Made by a program: the position numbers and the translations under genes. From assembly GCA_022769125.1 (NCBI GenBank), contig JALEKN010000019.1, positions 49,897-81,896 of the forward strand: DNA of 32,000 bases, in the 5' to 3' direction. Below, piece after piece: positions 1 through 16,954 of the stretch; within the stretch, counting starts at the first letter, position 1; every line of letters begins with the position of its first letter. Source of the DNA: Agathobacter sp. GTDB taxonomy: Bacteria > Bacillota > Clostridia > Lachnospirales > Lachnospiraceae. A model generated the notes under the pieces. The model searched no databases. It saw only the letters and a list, made by a program, of their open reading frames with translations, and was not told the DNA's origin.

Positions 1-196
1 TTGGGGAATAACTTCCGCCCTGTTCATACTCGTAGGTGCTTAAGTAATCTTCGTATTTGTTGTAGGACACATAGTGTACTACATAGTAGATAATATAAAA
101 CACCGCGATAACTGCTACGATTCCTAGCAGAACGAGCAGGATACGTTTCATCATGCTCATGGGCATTTTAACTTTTGGTTCTTTTTCTTTTTTCAT
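1..196 (-). CDS. N-terminal fragment of a membrane-anchored protein; the gene continues past the window start and its family cannot be determined from about 65 aa
   Basis: ATG at 196 on the minus strand is preceded by GGAGG, which overlaps the TAG of the upstream gene. Translation is MKKEKEPKVKMPMSMMKRILLVLLGIVAVIAVFYIIYYVVHYVSYNKYEDYL..., a basic N-terminus plus one TM helix. The frame is open to the window edge. It is absent from the ORF track because it is truncated. Confidence 0.5.
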   Translation of the reverse strand, partial: MKKEKEPKVKMPMSMMKRILLVLLGIVAVIAVFYIIYYVVHYVSYNKYEDYLSTYEYEQGGSYSP

Positions 197-206
197 GCCC
201 TGCCTC

Positions 207-848
207 CTAGGTTCTAAAGATCAGCTCAGTATAGATACTGTGGAAGAAGTTATATACCATACCAAGCAAGTTGCTTAAAAGTAAAACTAAAAATACAATT
301 ATGAACATTGCCACAAACGTTAGCAGCAAAGTCAGTAACGTTTTTCCTAATGTATAGTTGTGTACCTGCATGATACCGATCAGCATCATGATCACGCCAT
401 ATGCAATGCCTACAACAAGGATTAACGTGTAAAATGCCTGTTCATCATCCGCGATATACTGGCTTATGATGGTTGCAAGCACTAGCGAAAAGGTGATTGG
501 AACAGTTCCGTATCCTATCGCTATTGCAATGTCCTTCAATCGTCCCTCGCCGCTCATCAAACAGGTGATCGACCAGTTGCTGACACAGATCAGCAGGTAG
601 AATACCAGCACACCCAAAAGCTCATATGCCAGGTTGATGTTTCGTGGATCTAAGTCATTTACTACAAAACTTGCCAGAAGGCGGATTCCCGTAAAGCTGA
701 ATCCGAACAGCACGACCAGAATGATTGCGATTGGTACGCTGCCTCTGTCCTTGTGGCGGATCCAATAGTATCCGTCCATCGGATGGGAAATGGTATACAG
801 AAGATACTTCCATTTTTCTGCTGCAAAGTATTTACGCATTCTGTTCAT
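207..848 (-). CDS. Yip1-domain-like polytopic membrane protein
   Basis: 213-aa ORF with about 5 hydrophobic helices. The N-terminal YTISHPMDGYYWIRHK..SVPIAIILVVLFGF resembles bacterial Yip1-family proteins. The start overlaps the upstream NHL gene by 17 nt (832-848). The TAG stop sits inside the SD of the next gene. Confidence 0.6.
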   Translation of the reverse strand: MNRMRKYFAAEKWKYLLYTISHPMDGYYWIRHKDRGSVPIAIILVVLFGFSFTGIRLLASFVVNDLDPRNINLAYELLGVLVFYLLICVSNWSITCLMSGEGRLKDIAIAIGYGTVPITFSLVLATIISQYIADDEQAFYTLILVVGIAYGVIMMLIGIMQVHNYTLGKTLLTLLLTFVAMFIIVFLVLLLSNLLGMVYNFFHSIYTELIFRT

Positions 849-2343
849 CCCCCTTCTTTTTCTTCTTTGTCACGATAATTCCGCGTTTTTTTAAGTTGTT
901 GTAGATAACGATCAGCACGATCACCACAATCAATGCCGTAAGGTAAACATTGGCATTTTCTGTAAGGAAATTGTTGCGGTGGCGCCGGTATGCCACAGAA
1001 TAATAATCCCTTGCCATACCAAGCTTTAAGTACTTCATCGCCTGCTCGTAATCGCCTGCGGTCAGATAGGCCTTACCAATACCGGTATTTGCAAGCTCGT
1101 TGTTCTCATCCAGATAAAGAACTCTCTGCCACAGATCAACCGCCTCAGCTTCGTCTCCATCGTAGCGGAGTCCAACTGCATCGTTGATCAGCCGTCCGTA
1201 TTCGGTCTCTTTAAAGTAAGTAACCTTTGCATCCGTTGCATCCAGAACAAGAAGATCGTTTCCGACATTCTCTACTGCAACCGGGAGCTTAAAGGTTCCA
1301 GCCTGTGTTCCGAGACCACCGAAGATGTAAAGCAGGTTTCCTTCATGATCATAGGTAAATACTCTGCCACGCTTACGATCTAAGCAGGAATAAATTCCCT
1401 TATCTCTGTACACGACATCCACGAACTGGGATGGTCCGGAGTAATCGGTCGTTCCATCAATCTGTAAGTCGCCTCCGAGGTTCTCATTGGCACCTTTCTT
1501 GATGACATCCTCGCCTCGCGGATTTAACCTGCGCACACCCTGCACGCCGTTCGGGTCAATGTTGGAAGCATATACAAATCCGTCCGGATCAATATCAATA
1601 CCGGTAAACTCTGTTGGGATGAACAATTGGGACTTTGCACGCTCCTCCTTGGATGCGAGCTTTCTCCAGAACTTCTCCCACAAGGTAATCTCTACATTGA
1701 TGGTTCCGAAGAAGCCTGTGAATTCACCATTTGTCTCGAATACCATGATTCCTTCAAACATGTTCTGTGCAACGCAGTAGATACGGTCTGCATAATCGAC
1801 AGATACTTTAAGAGGAACAAACACAAATCCATCATCAAGTGCTTCTGAAGTCGGATTAGATACGATCCTTGCAAGAGTTCCGTCCTCATTCAGTACGACA
1901 ATCCGCTTATTCTGCGAATCGGCGATGTAGAGCTGATTGCTTTCGGAAACTGCAACGCCGGTTGGCTGTTTGAAGGTATCCTCCGTGCCATCATTGTCAA
2001 ATGTTGTTATGATCCGCTTAACCTCTGACATCTTGCCATCCATGACAACGATACGGTTGTTACCGGTATCTGCCAGATAGATCAGTCCCTCATCTGAAAC
2101 ACACATATCCTGCGGTGTAACAAATGGCCCGATCGGTTCCCCGTTATAGGTAAGGTCTTTACCGGATACGGAAAAGTCCGGCTCATATGCAGCAGGTGTA
2201 TATACGATATACTCCCAATAATTGTAATTGTAGGTCGTATACGGAAGTTCGGAAGCCTTCACCGCTTCCGGTGCCATGCTCACTAATGTTACTGCCGTAA
2301 GCAGGAGAGCAAAAATACTTTTTACAATCTGTTTTGCTTTCAT
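832..2343 (-). CDS. Secreted NHL-repeat beta-propeller protein with a TPR-like segment and a C-terminal TM anchor
   Basis: Signal peptide (..MAPEAVKA/SE). NHL-type blades: GLIYLADTGNNRIVVMD, QLYIADSQNKRIVVLNEDG, RIYCVAQN, GFVYASN, LLVLDATDAKVTYF. TPR-like helices: GIGKAYLTAGDYEQAMKYLKLG. One TM helix (VYLTALIVVIVLIVIY) followed by a Lys-rich tail (KKKKKGDEQNA). Confidence 0.75.
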   Translation of the reverse strand: MKAKQIVKSIFALLLTAVTLVSMAPEAVKASELPYTTYNYNYWEYIVYTPAAYEPDFSVSGKDLTYNGEPIGPFVTPQDMCVSDEGLIYLADTGNNRIVVMDGKMSEVKRIITTFDNDGTEDTFKQPTGVAVSESNQLYIADSQNKRIVVLNEDGTLARIVSNPTSEALDDGFVFVPLKVSVDYADRIYCVAQNMFEGIMVFETNGEFTGFFGTINVEITLWEKFWRKLASKEERAKSQLFIPTEFTGIDIDPDGFVYASNIDPNGVQGVRRLNPRGEDVIKKGANENLGGDLQIDGTTDYSGPSQFVDVVYRDKGIYSCLDRKRGRVFTYDHEGNLLYIFGGLGTQAGTFKLPVAVENVGNDLLVLDATDAKVTYFKETEYGRLINDAVGLRYDGDEAEAVDLWQRVLYLDENNELANTGIGKAYLTAGDYEQAMKYLKLGMARDYYSVAYRRHRNNFLTENANVYLTALIVVIVLIVIYNNLKKRGIIVTKKKKKGDEQNA

Positions 2344-2355
2344 ATTTCCCCTCCC

Positions 2356-3246
2356 TTAATCCTTCATACCGGATGTTGTCATCGTCTCGAGGACGTTGCT
2401 CTGACAGATCAGGAAGAAAGTGATCGGCACTGCCGCGATAATAAAGGTTACTGCGGCTGCCGCGCCTGCACGGGCAACACCGCCTGCCGTAATCTGCTGC
2501 AATGAATACTGCAATGGCTTTAACTGCTCATCGCGCAGGAACAATGATCCTGTATTTCCCCACATCTGCTGGAACTGGAAAATTGCCAGTGTCAGCCATG
2601 CCGGTTTTACGTTCGGCATTACGATACTCCAGAAGATCTTCCACTCACTTGCACCGTCTAGTCTTGCAGATTCCATAAGTGAATCCGGAAGCTGTTCCAT
2701 GAACTGTTTCATCAGGTAAAGTCCCATACCAAATGACCATGCCGGAAGTATCAGTGACAGGTATGTGTTATTGATATGTAACCAGCTGATGATCAAATAC
2801 TGTGGAATCTGTGTTACGGTCCATGAGAACATCATGGAAAGAACTACCATGGAAAAGAGCTGCTTCTTAAATGGAAACTCGTTCTTTGCCAGCGGATATG
2901 CTGCCATGGATGCGATCACTACGTGACCGATCATTCCGCCACCCGTGATGATCAGGGTATTTAAAATGTATCGTGAGAACGGAACCCAGGAATCATTCAT
3001 CAGTACGAACAGGTCTGAGAAATTCTCCAATGTAGGGTTGCGCACAAAAATCTTCGGTGGGAACTGGTACAACTCATCCAACGGTTTGAGCGCATTGTTC
3101 ACGATCATTACCAATGGCAATACCATGAACACTCCGCAAATAATCATGATTCCAAACAGAAGAGTGTTGCCGGCCAATGAGCGGTTCAGCTGTTTCTCTC
3201 TGTGGAACAAACGCTTTTTCGGTTTTGTAATCTCTCTCTTGGCCAA
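2356..3246 (-). CDS. Carbohydrate ABC transporter permease (CUT1, MalG-like)
   Basis: 296 aa and polytopic, with EAA loop ESARLDGASEWKIFWSIVMPNVKPA. The start is TTG with GGAG 7 nt upstream, 2 nt after the stop of the preceding permease. Confidence 0.9.
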   Translation of the reverse strand: MAKREITKPKKRLFHREKQLNRSLAGNTLLFGIMIICGVFMVLPLVMIVNNALKPLDELYQFPPKIFVRNPTLENFSDLFVLMNDSWVPFSRYILNTLIITGGGMIGHVVIASMAAYPLAKNEFPFKKQLFSMVVLSMMFSWTVTQIPQYLIISWLHINNTYLSLILPAWSFGMGLYLMKQFMEQLPDSLMESARLDGASEWKIFWSIVMPNVKPAWLTLAIFQFQQMWGNTGSLFLRDEQLKPLQYSLQQITAGGVARAGAAAAVTFIIAAVPITFFLICQSNVLETMTTSGMKD

Positions 3247-3248
3247 AA

Positions 3249-4190
3249 CTATTCTCCAACCCTTCCTAATATTTTTTGTACTAACTTATTGGTTCCAACC
3301 ATCAGCAGGAACAGTATCGTTGCAATTGCTGATGCATATCCCATTTCAAATCTTGTTGAACCGTAGTCCAGAAGATGGGTTACAACCGTTGCACCCGCAT
3401 AGTTAACAGATGGGTTACCTGCAAGGTTGATTGAAATATCTGCTACTGCAAAGGACTGTGTGATCTGCATAACTGCACCGAACATCAACTGCGGCTTCAT
3501 TGCAGGAAGTGTGACATACCACAGTTCCTGCCAGCGGTTCTTGACACCGTCAAGAGCCGCCGCTTCGTACATGCTCTTATCTACCGTCTGGAGACCGGCG
3601 ATAAATGAGAGGAAACCGGTTCCAAGGGAGAGCCATAACTGTACAACAATGAGGACCGGAAGGACATATTTTTCAGTCTGCATCCAAAGGATCGGCTCAT
3701 TGATGATTCCAAGTTTTAATAAAATACCATTTAAGTATCCGTATCTGTCTCCGGTAAGGATCAGGTTCCAGACCAGATATGCGTTACCGCAGATGGACGG
3801 TGCGTAAAAGATCAAAGTAAGAAAAGCTCTGAGTACGCCCTTAAACTCATTGATGATCCATGCAAACAACAGACACAGCATGTAGCTGACCGGTCCGGTA
3901 ATTACTGCAAAGATCAATGTGTTTTTCAGTGCTATCGTGAAGATATTATCTTCTAAGAACAACTTCACGTAATTTCTCCATCCGACGAAGTTCGGAACCT
4001 CCAGCATGTTAAAGTCCGTGAAGCTAAGTACGATTGACATAAGTACCGGTAATACTGTGAAGAAGAAGAACAGGATGAAATATGGAGCCATCATTGCGTA
4101 TGAAGCACGGTTCTTCTTTATCTGGTAGCCAAGGGAGCCCTGCTTTTTCGCGATTTCAAGCGCTTCCTGTGATACGCCGTTTGTTGCCAT
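3249..4190 (-). CDS. Carbohydrate ABC transporter permease (CUT1, MalF-like)
   Basis: 313 aa and polytopic, with EAA loop YEAAALDGVKNRWQELWYVTLPAMKP. It follows the binding-protein gene by 15 nt. Confidence 0.9.
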   Translation of the reverse strand: MATNGVSQEALEIAKKQGSLGYQIKKNRASYAMMAPYFILFFFFTVLPVLMSIVLSFTDFNMLEVPNFVGWRNYVKLFLEDNIFTIALKNTLIFAVITGPVSYMLCLLFAWIINEFKGVLRAFLTLIFYAPSICGNAYLVWNLILTGDRYGYLNGILLKLGIINEPILWMQTEKYVLPVLIVVQLWLSLGTGFLSFIAGLQTVDKSMYEAAALDGVKNRWQELWYVTLPAMKPQLMFGAVMQITQSFAVADISINLAGNPSVNYAGATVVTHLLDYGSTRFEMGYASAIATILFLLMVGTNKLVQKILGRVGE

Positions 4191-4205
4191 TTTTCCACCC
4201 CTTCC

Positions 4206-7200
4206 TTATTCTGATGCAAGCGGAAGATTGAATTCCTCACGCTTGTAATCAATTTCTGCGTTGATGTAAAGAACGTTATCCATAAGTTCCTCTCTCGGAG
4301 TTGCCACATACGTTCTTCCTGTGCTGCTTGCGTCTGTTGTCACACTGTAGAATGCGTTGTTGACATTACGCCAGGTATAATATCCGCCAGGTACCTGTGG
4401 GATTCCCTGTACCTGATCGAACTGCTGCATCAATTCCTCGTAGTCCTTGATCGGCCATGAAAGATTTGCAAGAGCGTCAAGATTTGCGGTTGCAACTCGT
4501 GCGCTCGCTCCCATCAAGCTTTCCATTTCTCTTCCGTACAAGGTCTGTGTCTGTGTGCTGGTCCACCATTTTAAGAATTCCCAGCTCTCCTGTGGATGCT
4601 CGGTATTTGCCATGATGATATCTGCAAGTCCCGCGCTTCCTGTCGTGTGATTGATGGTTCCATCTTCATTCTCAACTCCCGGAACTACTGTGAAGTCCCA
4701 CAATCCCGCGATATCCGGTGCGGATACCTGAAGGTTATTGTAAGTCGTGTAGTCTGAGATGATGATCGGACATTCACCGGTACGGAATCTCTCTTCCACG
4801 CTGGTTGCCTTATCCAGCTTATAGTCGGTATAGAACTCACAGTATTCCTTGAATGTATTGACTGCGATATCCGAATCAAGCATGGATGCGTCACCGTTCT
4901 CGGTGTAATATTCTCCACCGTTCTGGAACAAAAGCATTGCAAAGATCTGCTCTGTCGGAAGCATTCCGAATTCCATCTGGTTCTTTGCCAGAACTGTCAT
5001 TGCGACTTTTACCTCATCCCATGTTGTCGGGACATCGAGTCCGATCTCCGCCAGAATATCCTTGCGGTAGAACATCATCGGGAAGGTCTGTGTATCCGGC
5101 AGTGCATATGTCGCTCCGTTGAACGTAAATGGAACAAGTGCGCTCTCGGAAAACCGTGTTGTCACATCATTAAAATCGTCAAACTGTGTCAGGTCGAGTA
5201 CCGCATTACGAAGTCCGTAGTTAACCGGTGTATCGTTACCTGTATTTAGTACCGCTCCGGCAATACCATTCGTGTTTGCAACCTGAATCGCTACATCCGG
5301 TCCCTCGCCCGCGAGTGTTGCCCGGAGCAGGGTATTCATATCAACCAGCTGTACGTTTACGTTAACTCCCGTTTCATTGGTGAAGTTCTCATCGATCAAT
5401 GCCTTGATGACATTGGCCTGATCTCGTCCGGTTCCGATCCACAGTGTAAGTGTTACGCTGTCATCGGTATCTTCAACCACGTTACCGATCTGGTTGTAAT
5501 CAATAATGAAAGAATAGAACAATCTCTTCATCTCGTAAGAGGCTCTTGAGAACCATCCGGCCGATGCAATCTCCGGTTCGCTGTCCGCGGAGTAAATCAT
5601 CAGGCGGTCAATCTGCAGAGGCTGTGGAAGCACCTGTGTAATCCAGTTACCACATGCTCTTACGTTTACTTTATAAGAAGAAATAACCTCCGTGAACCGT
5701 TCCTCATCTTCGATCAGCTCTTCGAGCTGGTCACTCATTGTCACCAGGACTGTCAGCTTATCGCTGTTGTTTCCAGCAGTCTCACGAAGTGCTGCAAGCG
5801 TGGAATCAATTCCGGCCTTTGCCTCTTCAAGTTCTCCGAGGAGGCTTGGCAGGCTGGCTTCAATCTGATAGTCACGATAAATATCAGGTGAAACACCCGT
5901 AATATAAATTACCTGACGGTAAATGGAGTTTAACAGCTGTACCGTTTCCTGTACCTGGCTGATGATTCCTGCCATGTCACCGAGTACAACTTCCATTTTG
6001 ATGGTGTGATGTCCGGCTTCAAGATAGAAGTTATATGCATTGCCATCATCATCCGCGATCACTTCTTTGCGCCAATTCTGTTCATACGAAAAACCGTAAT
6101 CGTTCATCTCTGAGAATGGCACTTCATCATCGATGTAGATCTTACGGCATACATCAATTCCTCGTACAAAATTCTGCTTGCAATATGCTGCGATATTGTA
6201 ATATCCGGATTCTGCCACATCGAAGTCCCATTCGATCCACTGTCCCGCATCCTGCCATGAGGTTCCGCCGATCGTGTTATTCAGCAGGAGCTTCGGGCTG
6301 GACGGATATACCGCCGGTGATGACTGATCCTGTCTCGGATAAAGCATCTGGGAAGACATCTTTGTTGCGTTTTCTCCCTCGATTCTTACCATCTGTCCGC
6401 TTGTTGCTGTTGCCCCGGCTGCATCCCATGCAGCTTTGGTTGTTGCATAATCATCCACCTCTGATGGATTCTTGAATGTGATTTCATGGAGAAGCATCGG
6501 CTCCTTCAAAGACATTACGGACAAGGTATGTGTTCCTGCTTCTAAGTAAACCTCCAATGGGCTGGTAATGTATCCATTGGAATCATACAGATAGCTGTTT
6601 ACCCATTCCGGAGCTTCAATAGCTTCCGGTTTCACCTGAAAGCCCTGATTATCTGTCTCCCAGGCTTTTACCAAAACCCCGTTCTTATCCGTGTATGTAT
6701 CCTGTACATCCGTTACCCAGATACGATTCAATTCGATAAGGGAAAGTTCTTCATAAGGGAGCTGTCCGTCAATGAAAAAGGCCCGCTGGATTTCTGAGCT
6801 TTTGCCCTCTACCGGATAGTAATCCAGAGATACCGCATAGTATCCGGTTTTTTCAACATTGAACTCGAACTCCAGAAGGTCCTGTTCTCCGGTATAAATG
6901 CTATCCCCTGCAACACCCTCGTAATCTGTCCAGATTTCCGGATCTTTTGCCGTTCCGTCATCCTCACACCGGACGAGTGCATCCACACCTACCGTAATCT
7001 CGTCCTGTACGTATTCCGCATCATGCTGTGTCAGATACTCATTGTAGTTCGGAACGGAAGGATCAACAGAATAAGTACTGATAATATTCTCGAAATCCCC
7101 CATGCTAAGATCCGTCTGTGCGTATGAGTTTTCCGCCAGCTGCGGGCTCATGGTGAAGACCATTGCCAGTGCCAATGATACGGATACAATTCTTTTTGGC

Positions 7201-7217
7201 CATTTGCGATGTCTCAT
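4206..7217 (-). CDS. Giant (1003 aa) extracellular solute-binding protein: two N-terminal CBM-like beta-sandwich modules, a helical linker and a C-terminal SBP_bac_1 domain
   Basis: The N-terminal hydrophobic signal (SVSLALAMVFTMSPQLAENSYA) has no lipobox Cys. Two related modules are present: LLEFEFNVEKTGYYAVSLDYYPVEG..FFIDG..THTLSV and WIEWDFDVAESGYYNIAAYCKQ..IYIDD..HHTIKM. The second opens with VRIEGENA, typical of CBM6/35-like folds. The C-terminal roughly 440 aa (VTLTLWIGTGRDQANVIKALIDENF..) is a family-1 sugar SBP. Confidence 0.85.
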   Translation of the reverse strand: MRHRKWPKRIVSVSLALAMVFTMSPQLAENSYAQTDLSMGDFENIISTYSVDPSVPNYNEYLTQHDAEYVQDEITVGVDALVRCEDDGTAKDPEIWTDYEGVAGDSIYTGEQDLLEFEFNVEKTGYYAVSLDYYPVEGKSSEIQRAFFIDGQLPYEELSLIELNRIWVTDVQDTYTDKNGVLVKAWETDNQGFQVKPEAIEAPEWVNSYLYDSNGYITSPLEVYLEAGTHTLSVMSLKEPMLLHEITFKNPSEVDDYATTKAAWDAAGATATSGQMVRIEGENATKMSSQMLYPRQDQSSPAVYPSSPKLLLNNTIGGTSWQDAGQWIEWDFDVAESGYYNIAAYCKQNFVRGIDVCRKIYIDDEVPFSEMNDYGFSYEQNWRKEVIADDDGNAYNFYLEAGHHTIKMEVVLGDMAGIISQVQETVQLLNSIYRQVIYITGVSPDIYRDYQIEASLPSLLGELEEAKAGIDSTLAALRETAGNNSDKLTVLVTMSDQLEELIEDEERFTEVISSYKVNVRACGNWITQVLPQPLQIDRLMIYSADSEPEIASAGWFSRASYEMKRLFYSFIIDYNQIGNVVEDTDDSVTLTLWIGTGRDQANVIKALIDENFTNETGVNVNVQLVDMNTLLRATLAGEGPDVAIQVANTNGIAGAVLNTGNDTPVNYGLRNAVLDLTQFDDFNDVTTRFSESALVPFTFNGATYALPDTQTFPMMFYRKDILAEIGLDVPTTWDEVKVAMTVLAKNQMEFGMLPTEQIFAMLLFQNGGEYYTENGDASMLDSDIAVNTFKEYCEFYTDYKLDKATSVEERFRTGECPIIISDYTTYNNLQVSAPDIAGLWDFTVVPGVENEDGTINHTTGSAGLADIIMANTEHPQESWEFLKWWTSTQTQTLYGREMESLMGASARVATANLDALANLSWPIKDYEELMQQFDQVQGIPQVPGGYYTWRNVNNAFYSVTTDASSTGRTYVATPREELMDNVLYINAEIDYKREEFNLPLASE

Positions 7218-7253
7218 TTCTCCCTCTTTCCCGTGAACTTTTCACGTTAAATC

Positions 7254-7907
7254 TTATGATTGCTTTTGCTCCCGGTACCACGCATCCTTGTCATCCCCCG
7301 CAGGCGGCATATATGCCAGAAGCATTCTTTCTATAAAATAAGTTGATATGTAGCACCACAATCCCGGAAGGATTACAATGCAAAGCATCGGCAGCTTAAC
7401 AATCACCAGCCAGCCGACAAGTACGGTTCCCGCCACCAAAAGGGCAGAATAATAAATATACCTGACTGCCATAACAAAAGACAGTTTCAAAATACCGGTC
7501 ATTTTCATCTCAAATCTCGAGAAAACCGGAATCAGGCAGCTTGCCACGCAGGCGCTCACTGCAATCAGTACGTCGTATGCAAACAGCAGGAAATTAAATC
7601 CCTCTGTTTCATTTGCCACAGCGTACATTCTTCCGTACCATAATGCTGCTCCCCACAAAAGACCCGCAATAGAAAAAAGGATGCCTTTTTTCAGTGTCCT
7701 TTGCATGGACCGGAAGAATTCTTCTGCCACATATCCACAGTCTCTGCGGATACTTTTTGTGACTGTGTAGTAAAACGAAGTTGTTGCCGGAACAACAGTG
7801 ATAACCGGCACGCAGCACAACAGCCACAACAGGTTGGCAAATATCAGCTTTCCAAGCTTTGTCAGCGCAGTCATCAAATGTCCATCCGGACCCAAAAATG
7901 AACTCAC
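7254..7907 (-). CDS. DUF624/YesL-family integral membrane protein
   Basis: 217 aa. The N-terminus (LTKLGKLIFANLLWLLCCVPVITVVPATTSFYYTV) matches the YesL/DUF624 pattern common in Firmicute sugar ABC loci. The GTG start has GGAGG 7 nt upstream and overlaps the GH26 stop (GTGA). Confidence 0.6.
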   Translation of the reverse strand: MSSFLGPDGHLMTALTKLGKLIFANLLWLLCCVPVITVVPATTSFYYTVTKSIRRDCGYVAEEFFRSMQRTLKKGILFSIAGLLWGAALWYGRMYAVANETEGFNFLLFAYDVLIAVSACVASCLIPVFSRFEMKMTGILKLSFVMAVRYIYYSALLVAGTVLVGWLVIVKLPMLCIVILPGLWCYISTYFIERMLLAYMPPAGDDKDAWYREQKQS

Positions 7908-9427
7908 TGTAATTCCTCCCGTATCGGGTACGTTGTCAGATCAGGAATATCATCCTTCGTGATCACGATATCATTATTGTAAAACTCTTTCAGCTTATCC
8001 TCTTCGGTGTATTGGTCACTGTAGCTGTATATCGAAGTGTTCTTGGCAACAAATTCGGATCCCCATGTACACCAGAACCCCCACATTGCGCCATCCCGTT
8101 TTGCGAGTTCCGGATCAAATACACATCCATTCTCCGACAGCACAACCATTTTCTTTGCGGTTGTATAATTAACCGCTTCCAGATATTTGTTGATCTGCGA
8201 AGTATATACATGCTCGCCCGGATAGATATCTTCCCCGATGATATCCACATATTCATCTCCCGGATACCAATCCGCATCCTGTCCGTTCCACAACCAGATC
8301 AGATTGTTAAGACCATATTCATTGGTCAGCTTATCATATAGTAAAATGTAAAGTTGTTTGTATGCTTCCGGCCCGCTCGCTCCCCACCAGAACCAGCCGC
8401 CGCTTGCCTCGTGAAGCGGCCTCCAGAGTACCGGAACACCGGCATCCTGCAAAATCTGTAACTGTTTTGCTATTGCATCGATGTCATCCATCAGAAGATC
8501 GTACCCTTCCTGATCTTCCCCATTCATGATCTTTGCCAGATCAATGTTTGTCTGTTCTGCGCGGAATCCGCTGTACCATTCACCCGTCAGGTATTTTTCT
8601 GGTGCATTCCAATGCCAGCAGAATGTTACGATGCCGCCTGCATTCCAATATGCAATTGCAAGGTCCGTCGCATTACTGCTGCTGCCGTTCGCCACACGCG
8701 ATGGTGAATATTCGATAAAGTCAAGTCCGAGTATCGCAGGTGTCTTCCCGGTAGCATTCTTAACCACTGTATATTCTTTGCCGTACATGCCATCCGGCGA
8801 ATATTGTCCGGACAAAATGTTCGTTCCGTAATTATCTGCGAGATAGCTCATCAGACGCTTGGTGTTCTCTGTCGCATTCTTATTGACAAGTTCTGCCGGC
8901 ACATCATAGATGGATGCATCTAACGGCTCCGATGTCTGTACAACCAGATAGTCAAGATCGATCCAGCCCCAATACTTCGATACCTCAACTTCATGCGTTC
9001 CCTGTGTCAGATACACTCTTGTGAGGTAGGTGGTTGTAAACTCGGTGTCATCGGAAGTGATCGTTCCAACGGATTCTCCATCCACGCTGACGTAATTCTC
9101 TTTGTAATCACTTGCCGCCGTTGCAAGGCCCAGATCGTAAAATCCATCCTCGCTGATATTGATGGAAAAAGCACAGGCATCTGAGTCGTCCGAGAATCCC
9201 GTTGCATATCCGCTCCCCGAATACCCCTCTCTGCTGCTGCCTATGCTGACATTGCCTTTTAATTGTGCGTCCTCCGCTTCATATGTCCCTACAATCTCAG
9301 GAACAAAAGGGTCAGCGGATTGTGTCTGTGATGTTTCAGTTTCCTTTATCTCTGTCTCCTGCTGTCCGCAGCCGCTTAAAACTGCAGCGCCGGTCAGCAC
9401 CGCCATCACAATTTGTTTTCTCTTCAT
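7904..9427 (-). CDS. GH26 endo-beta-1,4-mannanase lipoprotein with an N-terminal CBM35/6-like module
   Basis: Lipobox AAVLSG/C. CBM-like YEAEDAQLKGNV..YSGSGYATGF..GFYDLGL. GH26 acid/base motif WRPLHEASGGWFWWG and nucleophile motif VVLSENG. Confidence 0.9.
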   Translation of the reverse strand: MKRKQIVMAVLTGAAVLSGCGQQETEIKETETSQTQSADPFVPEIVGTYEAEDAQLKGNVSIGSSREGYSGSGYATGFSDDSDACAFSINISEDGFYDLGLATAASDYKENYVSVDGESVGTITSDDTEFTTTYLTRVYLTQGTHEVEVSKYWGWIDLDYLVVQTSEPLDASIYDVPAELVNKNATENTKRLMSYLADNYGTNILSGQYSPDGMYGKEYTVVKNATGKTPAILGLDFIEYSPSRVANGSSSNATDLAIAYWNAGGIVTFCWHWNAPEKYLTGEWYSGFRAEQTNIDLAKIMNGEDQEGYDLLMDDIDAIAKQLQILQDAGVPVLWRPLHEASGGWFWWGASGPEAYKQLYILLYDKLTNEYGLNNLIWLWNGQDADWYPGDEYVDIIGEDIYPGEHVYTSQINKYLEAVNYTTAKKMVVLSENGCVFDPELAKRDGAMWGFWCTWGSEFVAKNTSIYSYSDQYTEEDKLKEFYNNDIVITKDDIPDLTTYPIREELQ

Positions 9428-9457
9428 GGCTTTTCCGCCTCTCCCAGAAGTTAGCTT

Positions 9458-9471
9458 TTAAGCTCGCTTAA
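9458..9471. promoter_or_regulatory. 14-bp near-palindrome TTAAGC-GA-GCTTAA in the 5' leader of the GH26/ABC operon; candidate LacI-family operator
   Basis: 6 of 7 arm positions are complementary with a CG-containing centre. It lies between the predicted -10 box (9519-9524) and the start codon (9427), and is flanked by repeated TTAGCTT words. Confidence 0.35.
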
Positions 9472-9518
9472 CTTAATTTAGCTTGTTTTAAGTTAATTCA
9501 TATGTTTTATTTAGCTTA

Positions 9519-9547
9519 ATTATAGCTTAGAATCTTAATTTGTTCAA
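9519..9547 (-). promoter_or_regulatory. Sigma-A-type promoter of the GH26-YesL-SBP-permease operon
   Basis: The minus strand reads TTGAAC (9547-9542), a 17-nt spacer, then TATAAT (9524-9519). It sits downstream of the esterase terminator and about 90 nt upstream of the GH26 start. Confidence 0.55.
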
Positions 9548-9619
9548 TGTTTTTTCACATTTGGCTGTTATTTTCGTCTATGTTAATGATTTTTGCATGT
9601 CATTTTTGTGCACTTTTTA

Positions 9620-9658
9620 ACAAAAAGCACTCTTTTGATAAAAAGAGTGCTTTTTTAA
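9620..9658 (-). terminator. Intrinsic terminator after the esterase gene
   Basis: Perfect hairpin AAAAGCACTCTTTT / GATA loop / AAAAGAGTGCTTTT (9623-9654), flanked by A and T runs. It lies 25 nt downstream of the esterase stop. Confidence 0.75.
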
Positions 9659-9682
9659 GTGGTTAAAGTTAATTAATTTAGT

Positions 9683-10975
9683 TTATGAAGTCAAAAATCC
9701 AAGGAGCCAGAACAGTTCCTTTTCTGTCCCTTCCGTCTTCTTTATGGTAACGGTATGTTCTGCTTCTTCCTCCGAAGTGTATACCTCAGTTGCCGTAATC
9801 GCGTCACCCCAGCCATCGGAGAAGTCCGCATTGACCGCGCGCACGCTCTCCCCGTCAACCAATATATCAAAACTGCCGCTCTTGCCATCTGTTGTCGCAA
9901 TATACAGAATCCCAAGGTTGCGGAAACGAAGTGTAACGGTAAGTCCGCCGTCGCCCTCCTCGCATATCCATCCATCTGGGAAATATTCCCCGGTGTCCTG
10001 CTCCGAGAATGTGCCAAGTTCCTCCGGTGTAACGTTGGTACGGTCTGCAATATCCGCATCCGCATAACGGTCATCCGTAGCTGCAGTTATCGAAAAAGCT
10101 TGAGGCTCCGGTAGTTCATCCCGCTGTTCATATACCTGATTCAAATATCTCCACAGCAATTCCCCCGCAATCGCATGCCCGAGTGCGGATGGATGCACCC
10201 CATCCCCGGACAATTGGCTGGCGCTGTACTGCCCGTTTTCCATCATATGCTCGATGCAGTTCGCATAACTGATCATCGGAAGTGCGTATTGAAATCCGAC
10301 AAGCACCTGATTGCCCTGCGCGTTCGTTCCGTTTGTCTGTTCCATAAACAAAAGCATGACCGCCGGGGCGCTTTCCGCCTGCAGGATGTTCCGCAGCAGA
10401 TTATCATAGGACCTTTTATAGAAGAAACTGTTTGCGTCATTTACTGCATACTCCACCAGCACGAGATCCGGCTCCTGCGACAGCACATCACGCTTTAGGC
10501 GGTGCACCCCCAGATAGGAATCTGTTCCGCCGATTCCCGCATTCACAAAGGTGATCTCCGTATCCGGAAACTGTTTTTCCCACCACTCGTGGAAGATATC
10601 CGCATATGGCCGCGAAAATCCGACGGTATCATCCAGATCCCCTTTTGCAATTGTCCCCTGTGTAATAGAGCCACCGATGCAGGCGATCGTTACAGGCTGT
10701 CCTGCCGCCGCCTTTCTCATTACCTTTGCAAGTGCTGCATCATCACAGCTCGGCCATTGATCCGCAAGTGCCATCTCATCCCCGCTCACATAATCCGTAA
10801 GCGGCTCGACTGCTTCTTTTCTAACTGTCTGTCCAGAGTCTTGTTCTTCCTGGTGCTCCTGCTCCCTGGCAGTCTGCGTATCTGCCGGGTCGTAAGTACT
10901 CTCCGGTGCTGTCTGGCAGGCCGAAACAAACATCACTGTAAGTGCAAGTACCGCTGCATACCATCTTTTCTTCAT
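9683..10975 (-). CDS. SGNH/GDSL-family carbohydrate (acetyl-mannan type) esterase lipoprotein with a C-terminal beta-sandwich domain
   Basis: Lipobox MFVSA/C. SGNH blocks: I IACIGGSITQG, II NAGIGGTDS, III EYAVNDAN, V DGVHPSALGH. The roughly 130-aa C-terminal module (GLTVTLRFRNLGILYIATTDGKSGSFDILVDGE..) looks CBM-like. Confidence 0.85.
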   Translation of the reverse strand: MKKRWYAAVLALTVMFVSACQTAPESTYDPADTQTAREQEHQEEQDSGQTVRKEAVEPLTDYVSGDEMALADQWPSCDDAALAKVMRKAAAGQPVTIACIGGSITQGTIAKGDLDDTVGFSRPYADIFHEWWEKQFPDTEITFVNAGIGGTDSYLGVHRLKRDVLSQEPDLVLVEYAVNDANSFFYKRSYDNLLRNILQAESAPAVMLLFMEQTNGTNAQGNQVLVGFQYALPMISYANCIEHMMENGQYSASQLSGDGVHPSALGHAIAGELLWRYLNQVYEQRDELPEPQAFSITAATDDRYADADIADRTNVTPEELGTFSEQDTGEYFPDGWICEEGDGGLTVTLRFRNLGILYIATTDGKSGSFDILVDGESVRAVNADFSDGWGDAITATEVYTSEEEAEHTVTIKKTEGTEKELFWLLGFLTS

Positions 10976-11064
10976 TCCTGTTCTCCGTTTTCTGTCAGGT
11001 CCGCCATGCCCTGCAATCTGTCACCTGCAGCATCGCCGCCCGATCATATCATCCGATGGGAGAG

Positions 11065-12087
11065 CTAGATTCTGCGTACACTGTTCTTGAGCACGAGATG
11101 CCCTTCTACCACATGGATTCTGCTACTGTCTGCCCCATGTGACATTTTCTGGATCAGTGCCGCAACACTCTGCGCTGCCATCTCCTCAAAATCAACTTCA
11201 TAAGAAGTGATCTCCACATTGCACAGATCTGGGTGGATATAATTGTCGTATCCAACCACAGATATATCCTCCGGCACACGATAGCCCTGACGCTGCAATT
11301 TGTTGATCAGTTTCCCTGCAACAAGGTCGCAGTTGCAGAAAAATGCAGTCGGCATCTCATCCGGAAGCACCATCATATTTTCATCATCAATCAGACCGCT
11401 TGATACATTGCGGTCATTGATATGCCAATCCTTACGGATCTCGATTCCATGCTCCATAAGTGCCTTTACATACCCAAGATATCTGTCTGTGATCGAGCTT
11501 GTTGCAAGAAGTGTTCCAACATAAGCGATCTTTGTGTGTCCCATGGAAAGCAGATAGTTTGTCGCATAGTATCCGCCATAGTAATTATCCGATACCACAG
11601 CATCGGTGGTCTTTCCCTCATCCGCGAAATCCATGTAAACGGTAGGTATTTTTGTTTTTTCACGAATCAATGCAAGATAACGCTCGGATGGCTTTCCGAC
11701 AACAATAATACCGTCTACTTTCTGCTCCTCGAGCAGTTTCGGAAGCTCAAGTGCCTTCTCCATCTGCTGGCTGACCACCTCAAGCATGGTAAAGCTTCCC
11801 TTTTCCATCGCATGCGTTGCGACACGCTGGTACATCATCCAGTAAAAAGAGTCATATTTATCCAGATAAGATTCCTGTATGATTACACCAATGTTATAGC
11901 TTTTTACAGCCGGGCGTCTGCCGGCTGCATTTTTTGTAGGTATATACCCCATCTCATCTGCCAGCTTCTGGATGCGTTCCCTCATCTCTTCACTGACTCC
12001 TTTTTGTCCGGAGAGTGCCTTTGATACAGTCACTACGCTGACATTCAATTTTTCCGCAATATCTGCAAGTTTTACTGCCTTTGCCAT
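11065..12087 (-). CDS. LacI-family transcriptional regulator
   Basis: HTH motif VKLADIAEKLNVSVVTVSKALSGQKGVS plus a periplasmic-binding-like sugar sensor domain. I prefer the ATG at 12087 (MAKAVKL..) with GGAGG 8 nt upstream over the longer ORF-track start. This start shares 1 nt with the GH36 stop (TGATG). Confidence 0.9.
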   Translation of the reverse strand: MAKAVKLADIAEKLNVSVVTVSKALSGQKGVSEEMRERIQKLADEMGYIPTKNAAGRRPAVKSYNIGVIIQESYLDKYDSFYWMMYQRVATHAMEKGSFTMLEVVSQQMEKALELPKLLEEQKVDGIIVVGKPSERYLALIREKTKIPTVYMDFADEGKTTDAVVSDNYYGGYYATNYLLSMGHTKIAYVGTLLATSSITDRYLGYVKALMEHGIEIRKDWHINDRNVSSGLIDDENMMVLPDEMPTAFFCNCDLVAGKLINKLQRQGYRVPEDISVVGYDNYIHPDLCNVEITSYEVDFEEMAAQSVAALIQKMSHGADSSRIHVVEGHLVLKNSVRRI

Positions 12088-14279
12088 CAATTGCCTCCTT
12101 CTATAATATGGATCAGCTTCGACTGGAAATCTCCCCACATATTCTGGATCAGAATTCCGGCATTCATCAATGTATCGCCGTAGTACAGCTTGTCTTCACC
12201 CTCAATACGATACTGTTTCTTCGGGTCAAGTCCGTACAGGTGAATCCTGCGGCTGTGATAATTCGGGCGGTTCAACACCTGTACGAAAGTGATCAGTGCT
12301 TCGGATTTGTCCTTTGCCACAACCTCATAACAATCGTACATGTGATTCTCACGATAAGAAGCAATACGATAATAGTCGCCACCACGGACAAGCGGATTGT
12401 ACTTATGATACCGCTCAATCTGCTCCGGAATCTGTGCACGGTCTTCCTCCGGAATCTTCGTAATATCAAGCTCATATCCGAAGGTTCCAGCAAGTGCTAC
12501 ATTGCCTCTTGTTGCAAACGGTGTCACACGGCCCACCGTATGATTCGGGCAGTCGGAAACATGTGCTCCCATTGTGGACAGCGGGTAGATCAGTGATGTT
12601 CCCTCCTGGATGGAGAGTCGCTCGATCGCATCCGTATCATCAGAGCACCAGATCTGCGGGCTGTAGTAGAGCATTCCCGGATCAAAACGTGCGCCACCGC
12701 CGGAGCAGTTCTCCAGAAGCAGATTTGGGAATTCTGCCAGCAGGCGTTCCTGCAGTTCGTATACCGCAAGTACATAACGGTGGCAAAGCTCTCCCTGATT
12801 CTCTTTTCCCAGATAGGTGCTGCCAAGATCGGTAAGCTGACGGTTCATATCCCATTTTACATACTCGATGTTCGCGCTTCTCAAAATATTTGCGATGCTT
12901 TCATATACGTAGTCAACGACTTCTCTGCGGCTCAGATCAAGAGCGTACTGATTTCTGGAGCGGCATGCGGTTCTTCCTTCGATCGCAATCGCCCAATCCG
13001 GATGCTCACGGTACAAATTAGAATCCGGGGAGATCATCTCCGGCTCAAACCAGATACCGAACTTGAGTCCGATCTTGTTGACTTCATCTACCAGATATTT
13101 GATACCACCCTGAATCTTGTTCTCATTGACCGTCCAGTCTCCAAGGCTTGTATTATCGTCATTTCTGTATCCGAACCAGCCATCATCCATGACAAGCATC
13201 TCAATACCTGCCTTTTTTGCCTCGCGTGCAATGGATAAAAGCTTCTCGGTGTCAAAGTTAAAGTAGGTTGCCTCCCAGTTGTTGATGAGGACAGGGCGTT
13301 CCTTTGTGCGGTATGGACTGCGGATCAGATGCTCGCGGTACAGGTCATGCAGATTTCTGCTCATCTGTCCAAGTCCGTTTGCGGAGTAGGTCATGACAAC
13401 CTCCGGCGCAACAAAGCTGTCGCCCGGGCGAAGCTGGTAGCAGAAATTGTCCGGATGGATACCCATCTGTACGCGCAGGCTGTCAAACTGTGACTTTTCT
13501 ACCTGTGCAAGGAAATTGCCGGAATATACAAAGTGGAAGCCATATACAGAGCCGCTCTCCTGTGTGGCTTTCTCTGACACAAGTGCCACAAACGGATGAT
13601 CCTGATGGGAGGACTCGCCTCTGGTAGACCCTACACTCTGCTTTCCATATCCGATATTGCGGAAATCCATCTGACGCTCTCTCGCCCATGAGCCGTGGAG
13701 TGTCAGCATCTGGTAGTCCTCCTGATCCATATCCAGACTTAGTGACATGATCTTTGTCAGATATATTGTCTCCCCGGAAGCATTCTTTACAGTAATGCTG
13801 CGTGTGATCACATCCTCTTTTTCAAATACGGAATAGAACAGCGTAGCCTCTAGTCCAAGAACCGGATCTGCCACATCAAGTTCGAGCGTCATCACTTCTC
13901 CCTTTGGCGCAAAGGTTGCCGGAAGGCCTTTAAGAGCCGGCTTCTCGTCTGTGATTCTGTGTCCGCAATATACAAACTGTACAGCCTCGTGATTCTTTGC
14001 GTCTCTTACTGCAATGGCACTCTCCCGGTAATCACCTACCTGATTGCCCGGATATTCGGTCGGGAAAGTGTCGAAGAAGGAGCTTCTGTCACGGTTGTTC
14101 TTTGACGGTACAAACGGAGCCTCCTCCGTCCGGAGCAGATACGCCACATCAGCGTCACTGATCTTTGCTCCGTAATATGCGTGTCCTAAAAACTGCTCCT
14201 CGTCGCAGATTGCAATTACATAGGTTGTGTTCTTTGTATCTAACTTGAATGTCTTGGTCGTCTCATTAAATTGAATCAT
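12087..14279 (-). CDS. GH36 alpha-galactosidase
   Basis: 730 aa with no signal peptide. GH36 catalytic motifs IEYVKWDMNR and ENCSGGGARFD are present, and the overall length and architecture match AgaA/RafA-type enzymes. Confidence 0.93.
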   Translation of the reverse strand: MIQFNETTKTFKLDTKNTTYVIAICDEEQFLGHAYYGAKISDADVAYLLRTEEAPFVPSKNNRDRSSFFDTFPTEYPGNQVGDYRESAIAVRDAKNHEAVQFVYCGHRITDEKPALKGLPATFAPKGEVMTLELDVADPVLGLEATLFYSVFEKEDVITRSITVKNASGETIYLTKIMSLSLDMDQEDYQMLTLHGSWARERQMDFRNIGYGKQSVGSTRGESSHQDHPFVALVSEKATQESGSVYGFHFVYSGNFLAQVEKSQFDSLRVQMGIHPDNFCYQLRPGDSFVAPEVVMTYSANGLGQMSRNLHDLYREHLIRSPYRTKERPVLINNWEATYFNFDTEKLLSIAREAKKAGIEMLVMDDGWFGYRNDDNTSLGDWTVNENKIQGGIKYLVDEVNKIGLKFGIWFEPEMISPDSNLYREHPDWAIAIEGRTACRSRNQYALDLSRREVVDYVYESIANILRSANIEYVKWDMNRQLTDLGSTYLGKENQGELCHRYVLAVYELQERLLAEFPNLLLENCSGGGARFDPGMLYYSPQIWCSDDTDAIERLSIQEGTSLIYPLSTMGAHVSDCPNHTVGRVTPFATRGNVALAGTFGYELDITKIPEEDRAQIPEQIERYHKYNPLVRGGDYYRIASYRENHMYDCYEVVAKDKSEALITFVQVLNRPNYHSRRIHLYGLDPKKQYRIEGEDKLYYGDTLMNAGILIQNMWGDFQSKLIHIIEGGN

Positions 14280-14353: not shown

Positions 14354-15856
14354 TTAAAAATCCGATTCTTTGCTGTATGAAAGGAAACCATTTACTGTCT
14401 CTTTCTGCATTTCAGAGAAAACAGATCTTGGATCATTATAGTACCGGACAAAGTCGTCTATCATCTCATGTCCGTAGCGCGTGCCGTCCGCATCAACGTG
14501 CTCTACAATCGGTGCATAAAAGGTATTGTGCTTTCCAAAGTTCGCCCACAGCAAAAAGTAGGAGCTTTTTGTCTTAGCAACAGCATCGAGCACATCCATG
14601 TACCAGCGCCGGTTGCAGTTGCCAGAACGGAACAGTGCCGTAGCATTGTCTCCCTCGTCCGGGACATCCGTTGCAAGTCCGGTCTCCGTCACCGCCATCA
14701 GACGGTCATGTGCCGCCGCGAAATCCTGTAAAACCTTAAGCTGCTTTTCAAAGTCCTTAAAGAAGATCTCATCCTGCCCCTTCTGCGAGATGCGGTCATA
14801 CATATCCACGCCGACCATGTCCACATAGTCATCTCCCGGATAACGCGCTTCAAATTCCTCCGGGCTTTTCGGTTCACTGCCCGGACTGTATACATAGAGG
14901 AAATTATGCACGTTCTTCGCGTCACGCAGATAGTCAATCGTATACCGGAACAGGGCCTTAAACTCCTCCGGTGTGCAATGCTCCTCGCCCCACCAGAACC
15001 AGCTTCCTGTGTTCTCATGGAATGGGCGGAACATGATCGGTCCCTCCAGAAGATGCGCAAAGTCAGCAATCATATCAAGATACGCAAGGTACACCTCATT
15101 GTACGCGCCGCCCGGCATGATCGCATTCACCACATCACCCTCCAACACATTCGGGGTATATGGGCTGAAATCGTACTTGGCATAAATCACATCGGATGGA
15201 TAGTGCTTCTGCGGCAGTGCAAAATCCGGGTCATCCGCCTGCTGCTTTTTCGCAAGCGACTGTTCATCCTGTGCTGCTGCATCGTCCGCCTGCCCGTCCC
15301 CGCGATACTCCGGGAAAAGCGCCACCTTCGTAAAGTTCGGCATGTGCGCGGATAAGCTGACCACGCTGCCACGCTCCATCGCATAGTTTGCCAGCTTTGC
15401 AGCTGCCACAACATTCGCATAGGCGGTTCCAAGGGCTTCCTCGTTGATCGCTCCGTCCGGAAAGCCGCCTTTTCCGGCATATAGCCGGTTATATTTCTTC
15501 ACGTTAAATTCACATCCGGTAAACGCTAATGCATCCATGCCGATCACACCCGGCAGTTCTCCGGTCACATCTTCTGTATCAGAAAAAGACAGGTCCTTTG
15601 CCCCTGCCTTTTTCCATAGATCATTCTGATGTCCGTACATCACACAGCCAGACCGGCCTACCGCCTCCATATACTGATACAGCCTGCGCGTATGCGCATC
15701 CGCATTTTTGTCTGCAAGCACAGCATCGGTGCGAAGGGCAATCTGCTCCTGTACGTTATCCCCCCGCATAATAACCAAGGAATCCGATTCTATTTTTAGT
15801 CTGTTTTTATTGCACGGTTTAAGCTCCGCGCGAATAATTTCTGCTGTCAATTCCAT
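14354..15856 (-). CDS. GH26-family glycoside hydrolase without a signal peptide (predicted cytoplasmic beta-mannan-oligosaccharide hydrolase)
   Basis: GH26 motifs FRPFHENTGSWFWWG (acid/base) and MAVTETG (nucleophile). The N-terminus MELTAEIIRAELKPCNK is not hydrophobic. There is an acidic low-complexity insertion, GDGQADDAAAQDEQSLAKKQQADDPDF. Confidence 0.8.
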   Translation of the reverse strand: MELTAEIIRAELKPCNKNRLKIESDSLVIMRGDNVQEQIALRTDAVLADKNADAHTRRLYQYMEAVGRSGCVMYGHQNDLWKKAGAKDLSFSDTEDVTGELPGVIGMDALAFTGCEFNVKKYNRLYAGKGGFPDGAINEEALGTAYANVVAAAKLANYAMERGSVVSLSAHMPNFTKVALFPEYRGDGQADDAAAQDEQSLAKKQQADDPDFALPQKHYPSDVIYAKYDFSPYTPNVLEGDVVNAIMPGGAYNEVYLAYLDMIADFAHLLEGPIMFRPFHENTGSWFWWGEEHCTPEEFKALFRYTIDYLRDAKNVHNFLYVYSPGSEPKSPEEFEARYPGDDYVDMVGVDMYDRISQKGQDEIFFKDFEKQLKVLQDFAAAHDRLMAVTETGLATDVPDEGDNATALFRSGNCNRRWYMDVLDAVAKTKSSYFLLWANFGKHNTFYAPIVEHVDADGTRYGHEMIDDFVRYYNDPRSVFSEMQKETVNGFLSYSKESDF

Positions 15857-16924: not shown

Positions 16925-16954
16925 TTTATTTCTCCTAATATTCCTATATTTTGC

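Follow-up and report, generated by a model that had tools for sequence, protein, structure and literature searches.

Firmicutes of the gut and rumen are usually pictured as taking up glycans with a surface enzyme, a lipoprotein substrate-binding protein (SBP) and two permeases. Roseburia intestinalis reportedly carries beta-mannan and xylan loci with CUT1 importers, the names attached to that work being La Rosa (2019), Leth (2018) and Sheridan (2016). The Gram-positive loci that we know as described combine one lipoprotein SBP with two permeases, and to our knowledge none contains genes for NHL, Yip1 or DUF5696 proteins. Here we analyse a 32,000-nucleotide (nt) stretch from Agathobacter sp. 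(assembly GCA_022769125.1, contig JALEKN010000019.1, positions 49,897 to 81,896), the whole of which we call the window, and in which an ABC importer operon runs on into three further genes encoding an NHL-repeat protein, a Yip1-family protein and a DUF5696 protein (together, the trio). Like Gram-positive polysaccharide utilisation loci (PULs), this locus groups a glycanase, an esterase, a LacI regulator, an SBP-dependent ABC importer and cytoplasmic GH36 and GH130 glycoside hydrolases (GHs), with a surface glycanase making oligosaccharides for import. It differs from them in having two permease pairs, an SBP of about 1000 amino acids (aa) that bears carbohydrate-binding modules (CBMs) and is not lipidated, and three conserved membrane-anchored accessory proteins, so that the module is much larger than the usual picture. 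It is a Gram-positive ABC-importer glycan locus with a substantial unexplored component: full-text literature searches, which did not cover subscription-only papers, found nothing on DUF5696 (PF18952) or on such an NHL-Yip1-SBP module, in line with an earlier statement, in a preliminary description made from the letters of the window, that the three proteins have no assigned role in glycan uptake. RefSeq annotates them only as 'NHL repeat-containing', 'YIP1 family' and 'DUF5696 domain-containing', all existing Pfam families.

By functional analogy only, the locus also resembles the Sus-like utilisomes of Bacteroidota, in which SusC/SusD is reported, in an account credited to White et al. (2023), to act together with a surface GH and glycan-binding proteins on the cell surface: in both, binding proteins and a protein of glycosidase fold at the surface are genetically locked to a transporter, and a genome has multiple copies, each with its own enzyme set. 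However, there is here no TonB-dependent transporter, SusD or outer membrane, the components are unrelated in sequence and fold, and Pfam scans of the window and related loci returned no SusC/SusD domains. A bacterial polytopic Yip1-family protein serving as an ABC-transporter accessory has a precedent in Bacillus YknW, which influences how the ABC transporter YknXYZ assembles (PMC4887032). YknYZ, however, is an exporter; it is of the MacB type and has a membrane-fusion protein. The transporters considered here are SBP-dependent importers of type I, and their Yip1 comes fused or coupled to an ectodomain of NHL-TPR type; no MacB/FtsX-type permease, ATPase or membrane-fusion protein was found beside Yip1, whose neighbours are BPD_transp_1 permeases and SBPs. 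An FtsX gene lies near one module in Mahella, outside the conserved block. The maltose importer MusEFGK2I of Corynebacterium glutamicum is a CUT1 importer that needs an extra membrane protein, MusI (PMC13008276), and a DUF624 protein encoded in the window has a match to the MusI family (NF052431 MusI_fam, 57 bits) that falls under the cut-off of 160. Unlike the trio, MusI is a single small membrane protein, with no ectodomains, glycosidase-fold partner or second permease pair.

Gene order in close and distant relatives identifies the trio as a conserved extracytoplasmic module that is genetically locked to ABC sugar importers, as had been proposed, and as a general importer accessory rather than a mannan-specific one. 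The invariant core consists of the NHL protein with its TPR-like segment and transmembrane (TM) anchor (NHL-TPR-TM), Yip1, DUF5696 and two CUT1-type permeases, permC and permD, usually joined by a lipoprotein SBP. The invariant neighbours of the trio are permC and permD, which lie outside the window, and not the large binding protein SBPbig and the permeases permA and permB that precede it there; these form a frequent but optional add-on importer. The window thus holds the add-on importer and the first three core genes, with the rest of the core past coordinate 1. Such modules accompany ABC importers in hundreds of Firmicutes species and apparently have not been studied.

In the window, the minus strand from 9427 to 1 is a single tightly packed operon in which every open reading frame (ORF) noted previously is present (Table 1). 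The gaps from DUF624 through SBPbig, permA and permB to the NHL gene are 36, 15, 2 and 12 nt, the NHL and Yip1 genes overlap, and the 10-nt gap between Yip1 and DUF5696 carries a GGAGG Shine-Dalgarno (SD) motif that overlaps the TAG stop codon of Yip1. The account of an importer operon continuing into three more genes, the third with an N-terminal TM segment and an SD overlapping the Yip1 stop, is thereby borne out by the ORFs, their junctions and their translations, with two amendments. The operon begins further upstream than had been noted, with genes for a GH26-CBM35 protein and the DUF624 protein, the start of the latter overlapping the stop of the former by 4 nt; no terminator-like sites were found between operon genes on the minus strand, and the only minus-strand promoter-like site with 10 of 12 matches in positions 1-12500 sits 5' of GH26. 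The overlap of NHL and Yip1, put at 17 nt, is likely to be 8 nt, as Yip1 probably starts at ATG 839 (210 aa), because an AGGGGG SD motif lies 9 nt upstream of this codon but directly against ATG 848, and near-identical metagenome-assembled genomes (MAGs) call a 210-aa protein. An exact-sequence look-up of the window Yip1 protein gave no match.

A scan of one genome per species with a 12-sequence NHL alignment returned close Lachnospiraceae relatives, at least 491 of them, and the best 80 (Lachnospiraceae-type, NHL 61-98% identical) were used to call ORFs, which were searched with the window proteins. SBPbig-permA-permB lie directly upstream of NHL in all 69 informative loci, Yip1 and DUF5696 follow it in 73/73, and the run through permC, permD, a CBM65 protein and a second, smaller binding protein (SBPsmall) is complete in 63/63. 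The trio is thus conserved beside such importers in related genomes; GH26 is upstream in 59 of 60 related genome loci and DUF624 is found in only about one in three. Closest to the window are the genomes of an Agathobacter sp. MAG and an assembly from a Lachnospiraceae isolate (NHL 97-98% identical to that of the window), and flanking DNA beyond the window was obtained through the NHL homologue P0001. In two contigs whose NHL is 98% identical (L001 and L002), the third gene, which had been left anonymous, encodes a 780-aa DUF5696 protein whose first 65 residues match the window; PF18952 is present in this full-length orthologue and in all 120 listed homologues. It is followed by permC, permD, a 636-aa CBM65 lipoprotein with three CBM65_1 modules, SBPsmall (a 518-aa lipoprotein with a lipobox), DUF624 and GH130. 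The DUF624 gene after SBPsmall is a second copy in L001.

The same arrangement extends to 80 metagenome loci retrieved by a DUF5696-anchored scan at 26-38% identity, with neighbours classed by purpose-built hidden Markov models. Yip1 is directly upstream of DUF5696 in 64 of 68 (three of the four exceptions are artefacts of ORF boundaries), NHL is present in 56 of 57 and fused to Yip1 in 28, and a permease is directly downstream of DUF5696 in 69 of 73, the misses again being boundary artefacts. The sole true Yip1 miss is L130 (8860-12505), where DUF5696-permC-permD-SBP stand without a recognisable NHL::Yip1 and a 394-aa ORF is found instead. The DUF5696-permC junction measures -4 to +18 nt in ten independent gene-called loci, a spacing at which the two genes would be translationally coupled, and all junctions from SBPbig to permD are at most 30 nt except one 58-nt permC-permD gap in L178. 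That the trio adjoins an importer by chance is practically excluded and the synteny data refute it, since gene order is strictly kept in about 160 loci at identities down to 26%, with fusions, overlapping stop and start codons and co-inheritance as a block. A role in exopolysaccharide or cell-wall export was also rejected: the permeases are type I importer transmembrane domains accompanied by SBPs, and the flanking genes are catabolic.

The preliminary description tied the trio to a mannan-type importer, and this is not supported, as the module also occurs beside GH5/GH9, GH10, GH30/GH106, GH38/GH3/GH2, GH36, GH140, GH29, GH43 and flavin monooxygenases. One Clostridia contig has the order SBPbig-perm-perm-NHL::Yip1-DUF5696-perm-perm-SBP-GH26, Mahella australiensis has two modules, one with GH5/GH9 and the other with GH30 and GH106, and a Bacillota MAG has one with GH38, GH3 and GH2; further settings include GH36 with DUF4832, GH10 with the SBPbig unit downstream, and GH140 apiosidase without SBPbig. 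A tblastn search of plasmids added two cultured hosts, Butyrivibrio fibrisolvens D1, whose module lies with GH43, and Paenibacillus cellulosilyticus (Bacilli), whose plasmid NZ_CP054609 carries a complete module at 80375-104147 (L177) in the order ugpC ATPase, SBPbig, two permeases, NHL::Yip1 fusion, DUF5696 and two permeases. In all, the module is found across Clostridia and Bacilli with several copies per genome, and a Pfam census of 95 flanking proteins returned 115 families, including LacI-type regulators, GH29, GH42, GH2, GH10, GH38, GH3, GH140 and GH18. In the GH5/GH9 copy of M. australiensis (CP002360; L091, 12131-17528), DUF5696 is split by an IS21-family insertion (transposase and IstB). 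Two modules (L123 and L126) lie about 40 kb apart on metagenome contig Ga0134096_1000020, and in L126 several ORFs each stand for the NHL::Yip1, DUF5696 and permD genes, which may mean that this copy is decaying or that the assembly is faulty there.

SBPbig was described as a CBM-fused binding protein lacking a lipid anchor, and both points stand. It has an SPase-I type signal peptide without a lipobox, followed by beta-sandwiches at residues ~70-250 and ~270-412, a five-helix bundle at 415-530 and a CUT1 SBP domain at ~580-1003. In an AlphaFold2 (AF2) model both beta-sandwiches match CBM6/CBM35 modules in PDB; the SBP domain is of low confidence in this model (predicted local distance difference test, pLDDT, 30-50), and the model is interpreted only for the N-terminal half of SBPbig. 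The PF01547 match is confined to residues 603-891 (6.2e-22), and sequence matches to sugar SBPs in PDB include 5ysb (8.8e-16, residues 584-899) and 4r9f (MBP1 in the PDB record, 1.5e-7). PermA and permB both match PF00528, with NCBIfam similarity to UgpA/UgpE and MalF/MalG. The family-1 SBP domain and two BPD_transp_1 permeases of a CUT1 importer are therefore present in the window, while the ATPase gene and the SBPbig lipid anchor are absent; no MsmX/MalK-type ATPase was found in the operon or in the related loci examined, and the ABC_tran ORFs at 17596-18264 and 19414-20268 are part of other units. In Firmicutes an ATPase shared by several importers and encoded elsewhere is usual. In some modules SBPbig is considerably longer (1483 aa in L083 and 1542 aa in L109), as is the CBM65 protein in others (~1015-1025 aa in L048, L049 and L053), presumably through extra binding modules.

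It was further suggested that the trio is a dedicated surface tether or feeder that holds the non-lipidated, CBM-bearing SBPbig above permA and permB. Lack of a lipobox is a family trait, seen in 105 of 112 SBPbig proteins, in contrast to the lipoproteins GH26, the CBM65 protein and, in most cases, SBPsmall; a gap of 12-26 nt separates permB from the NHL gene in all full loci; and the five-helix bundle of SBPbig could dock onto the TPR segment of the NHL protein. However, the link between SBPbig and the trio, without exception in close relatives, is not always kept in distant ones. Of the 30 well-flanked loci, which have 8 kb or more on either side, 15 carry SBPbig upstream and three carry it downstream, while 12 lack it within 8 kb, and the trio, TPR segment included, persists without SBPbig-permA-permB, e.g. 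in L095 and L098. In eight loci the SBPbig unit lies downstream of permD, away from NHL, and DUF5696 is coupled to permC rather than to this unit. Tethering of SBPbig cannot be the primary role of the trio because the SBPbig unit is missing from 12 of the 30 loci and on the other side in three; as a dedicated function it is unlikely, although it may be a secondary role where SBPbig is present.

The remaining part of the argument concerns the trio proteins themselves. The NHL protein starts with a signal peptide and a Tyr-rich N-terminal segment; six NHL-like blades come next, then a TPR-like segment at ~390-455 (TPR matches at residues 395-445) and a single TM segment at 466-484, before a Lys-rich tail that is predicted to be cytoplasmic. 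Six blade-like repeats can be read in its sequence, and phmmer matches it to six-bladed NHL structures (Thin, TRIM71 and Pizza6; E 1e-22 to 1e-17), so that, together with PF01436, the earlier reading as a secreted six-bladed propeller with a TPR-like segment and C-terminal TM helix is upheld. Yip1 matches PF04893 above its cut-off (42.4 against 28.6 bits, profile positions 3-171 of 173) and has five hydrophobic segments, in agreement with the five-TM Yip1-like protein proposed before. More than 2500 NHL homologues are found in a 90%-clustered database, with 1993 50%-identity clusters at E<=1e-30; in the top 150 family clusters, NHL-TPR-TM::Yip1 fusions account for 68 and stand-alone NHL proteins for 65. 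NHL and Yip1 are one functional unit. The predicted topology suits their fusion, as the cytoplasmic tail of the NHL TM segment meets the cytoplasmic N-terminus of Yip1, and places all accessory domains facing outward.

In protein P0287 (L089 6481-8703; L090 2935-5157), a PF06580 histidine kinase with HATPase_c has fused to it a paralogous NHL-TPR ectodomain that shares 41% identity with the window protein over residues 8-475; the gene lies between permA/B-type permeases, which it follows directly, and an AraC-type response regulator. This fusion shows that the NHL-TPR ectodomain is able to act as a transporter-associated sensing or docking domain. The same contig has a 399-aa stand-alone NHL protein after another permease pair. 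Could the trio then be a sensor, in which NHL-TPR senses substrate or the occupancy of the transporter, much as in a trigger transporter, and the signal passes through Yip1 and DUF5696 to control transport or expression? The sensor domain of Mycobacterium tuberculosis PknD is likewise an NHL propeller (PDB 1rwi, among the NHL matches). We nevertheless find this explanation very improbable, given that Yip1 has no known output domain, that a 780-aa protein with a glycosidase-fold ectodomain would be superfluous for sensing, and that the loci have regulators of their own (LacI in the window, histidine kinase/response regulator pairs in Mahella and Butyrivibrio).

The third gene product is predicted to be a membrane-anchored, outward-facing protein with a GH129-like glycosidase fold, on account of a structural model, Foldseek and a profile match. 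The AF2 model (pLDDT 74, predicted TM-score 0.79) consists of a TM helix and a (beta/alpha)8 barrel flanked by N-terminal and C-terminal beta-sandwiches, and Foldseek ranks GH129 first (5opq, E 1e-30; 8rzk; NagBb 5wzn, 1.5e-25), before GH101, GH36 and GH31. This three-domain architecture is that of GH129 (the alpha-N-acetylgalactosaminidase NagBb, 5wzn, and the 3,6-anhydro-D-galactosidase ZgGH129, 5opq) and GH101, at TM-scores of 0.58-0.69. A profile of nine diverse DUF5696 proteins matches 5opq (E 2e-5) and NagBb (4.6e-5) in PDB over partial length only, the match spanning an N-terminal motif, barrel strands 1-3 and the C-terminal sandwich, whereas a profile of close homologues gives E 0.25 against GH129. 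DUF5696 differs from GH129 in its 13-14% identity, in its N-terminal TM anchor, and in being always encoded between Yip1 and an ABC permease. In 66 non-redundant sequences the residues conserved at >=90% are W446, D579, R588, N615, N661, E677, H736, N757 and D261, of which W446, D579, R588, N615 and N661 form a polar pocket at the barrel face; D571 and D488 are variable.

These features could also fit a trio that lacks a structural link to the transporters and is merely regulated along with the importers, DUF5696 being a surface glycosidase of the ordinary kind, such as a debranching alpha-glycosidase, and NHL/Yip1 a separate surface enzyme or lectin. Profile-level homology to GH129 within a GH129/GH101/GH36-like fold, the conserved pocket, the annotation of some NHL homologues as gluconolactonase and the frequency of surface enzymes in Gram-positive polysaccharide loci all speak for it. 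Yet an enzyme of fixed specificity would not stay beside GH26, GH10, GH38, GH140 and monooxygenases alike, gene order and tight permease junctions are kept at 26-38% identity, far past ordinary co-regulation, the NHL::Yip1 fusion joins a propeller to a polytopic membrane domain without catalytic precedent, and the canonical catalytic pair is not conserved in DUF5696. We regard independent enzymes as quite improbable. The narrower idea that DUF5696 is the alpha-galactosidase of the locus was rejected as a general role, owing to the unrelated enzyme sets elsewhere and the cytoplasmic GH36 already in the window.

Divergence differs strongly between components when mean pairwise identity is computed among modules with different enzyme sets. 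It is highest for permA (57%; 54-67% across such modules) and permB (55%), intermediate for SBPbig as a whole (41%; its SBP domain is 40-56% identical to that of the window protein) and for permC and permD (41-42%), and lower for Yip1 (36%), DUF5696 (31%) and SBPsmall (26%); NHL representatives from distant modules are 33-45% identical to the window protein. This makes SBPsmall the obvious candidate for determining specificity. Between all components, distance matrices show correlations of r = 0.75-0.94, and the module is therefore inherited as a block. Partial correlations are led by the permease pairs, which served as positive controls (0.44 and 0.34-0.36), and the next are NHL-DUF5696 (0.46 with 61 loci, 0.20 with 30), SBPbig-NHL (0.33, third after the permease pairs, an exploratory value that would favour the SBPbig tether) and DUF5696-permD (0.24-0.29).

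From these results we lean towards the view that the trio is the front half of a conserved Firmicutes ABC-import module and acts as a permease-associated scaffold and hand-over apparatus. Its proteins would be membrane-anchored with large domains outside the cell and made in a fixed ratio with the permeases. NHL-TPR/Yip1 would serve as a polytopic scaffold, for which YknW is the precedent, positioning the GH129-like DUF5696 ectodomain, and SBPbig where present, above the permeases. A lipoprotein glycanase (here GH26) would release oligosaccharides, which DUF5696 may bind or trim at the membrane surface and hand to binding proteins for import, while specificity would reside mainly in the fast-evolving lipoprotein SBP and the flanking enzymes. 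Physical association, individual roles and possible catalysis are all inferred from synteny, fusion, topology and fold.

Several observations weigh against this assignment of roles. The canonical Asp/Glu catalytic pair of GH129 is not assignable in the 66 DUF5696 sequences: the only carboxylates conserved at >=90% at the barrel face or in the N-domain are D579 (64/66) and D261, and the region roughly expected for the acid/base is mostly Asn (N615 in 60/66), so that DUF5696 may not be an enzyme. Placing the GH129 catalytic residues on D579 and N615 by offset was a guess that we do not rely on, as the sequences align only in barrel strands 1-3. The fusion of the NHL-TPR ectodomain to a histidine kinase points to a sensing role, and the co-evolution signal is weak and exploratory because NHL and Yip1, fused in half of the family, score a partial correlation of just 0.07. 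High conservation of permA, permB and the SBP domain of SBPbig (window compared with L087, L091-L094 and L096) does not fit a simple substrate-specific importer. Downstream of the Paenibacillus module of L177 come four LLM-class flavin oxidoreductases, one NADPH-dependent oxidoreductase and two SBPs but no GH, which suggests that the module is not limited to glycans.

A stronger form of the same proposal, in which NHL-TPR/Yip1 and DUF5696 join one or two ABC importers in a stable supercomplex at the cytoplasmic membrane, is possible but in our judgement doubtful. Long oligosaccharides would there meet the CBM-bearing SBP and the ectodomain of glycosidase fold right above the permeases, to be captured and processed; the complex would be a Gram-positive counterpart of the Bacteroidota utilisome, and the Yip1-DUF5696 pair would be a universal, substrate-independent marker of such loci in Firmicutes, as SusC/SusD is in Bacteroidota. 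If the trio does complex with importers, it would represent a new transporter architecture and probably a new glycosidase-like family, and NHL/Yip1 with DUF5696 and two permeases would give a simple genomic marker to find and classify nutrient-uptake loci in Firmicutes, including butyrate producers relevant to dietary fibre. From Lachnospiraceae to Mahella and Paenibacillus the module stays intact, and it occurs in multiple copies per genome and alongside many enzyme sets. Cultured hosts are B. fibrisolvens D1, M. australiensis, P. cellulosilyticus and Clostridium sp. KNHs205.

Table 1. Features of the beta-mannan locus in the window (positions in nt; aa, amino acids; TM, transmembrane)
Feature	Position	Strand	Remarks
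Promoter-like site, 5' of operon	9519..9547	-	TTGAAC, 17-nt spacer, TATAAT; 10/12 matches; consensus match only
GH26 beta-mannanase with CBM35, operon gene 1	7904..9427	-	PF02156 2.7e-75; PF16990 4.4e-17
DUF624 / MusI-like polytopic membrane protein	7254..7907	-	PF04854 5.8e-12
SBPbig, 1003-aa binding protein	4206..7217	-	PF01547
permA, MalF/UgpA-type ABC permease	3249..4190	-	PF00528
permB, MalG/UgpE-type ABC permease	2356..3246	-	PF00528 1.4e-15
NHL-TPR-TM protein, 503 aa	832..2343	-	PF01436 54.5 bits
Yip1-family protein, 5 TM	207..848 (likely start ATG 839)	-	PF04893 9.2e-11
DUF5696, first 65 codons only, N-in TM anchor	1..196 (ATG 196)	-	rest beyond window end
GDSL esterase	9683..10975	-
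LacI regulator	11065..12138	-
GH36 alpha-galactosidase	12087..14279	-	called ORF overlaps LacI ORF
Second GH26	14354..15856	-

The neighbourhood of the operon is a beta-mannan utilisation locus: the gene classes of Gram-positive PULs are co-located at 1-15856, with GH26 twice, GH36, a GDSL esterase, LacI and the ABC importer genes, and the GH26-CBM35 protein is a lipoprotein with the lipobox LSGC. The rest of the window (16139-31994, minus strand) is seemingly unrelated to it. Encoded there are TatD, NUDIX, methionyl-tRNA synthetase, a methyl-accepting chemotaxis protein, a hybrid histidine kinase carrying SBP_bac_3 domains, and an MCRA-family protein together with a TetR regulator; there are also two ABC ATPases, and the ORF after each of them has no Pfam match.

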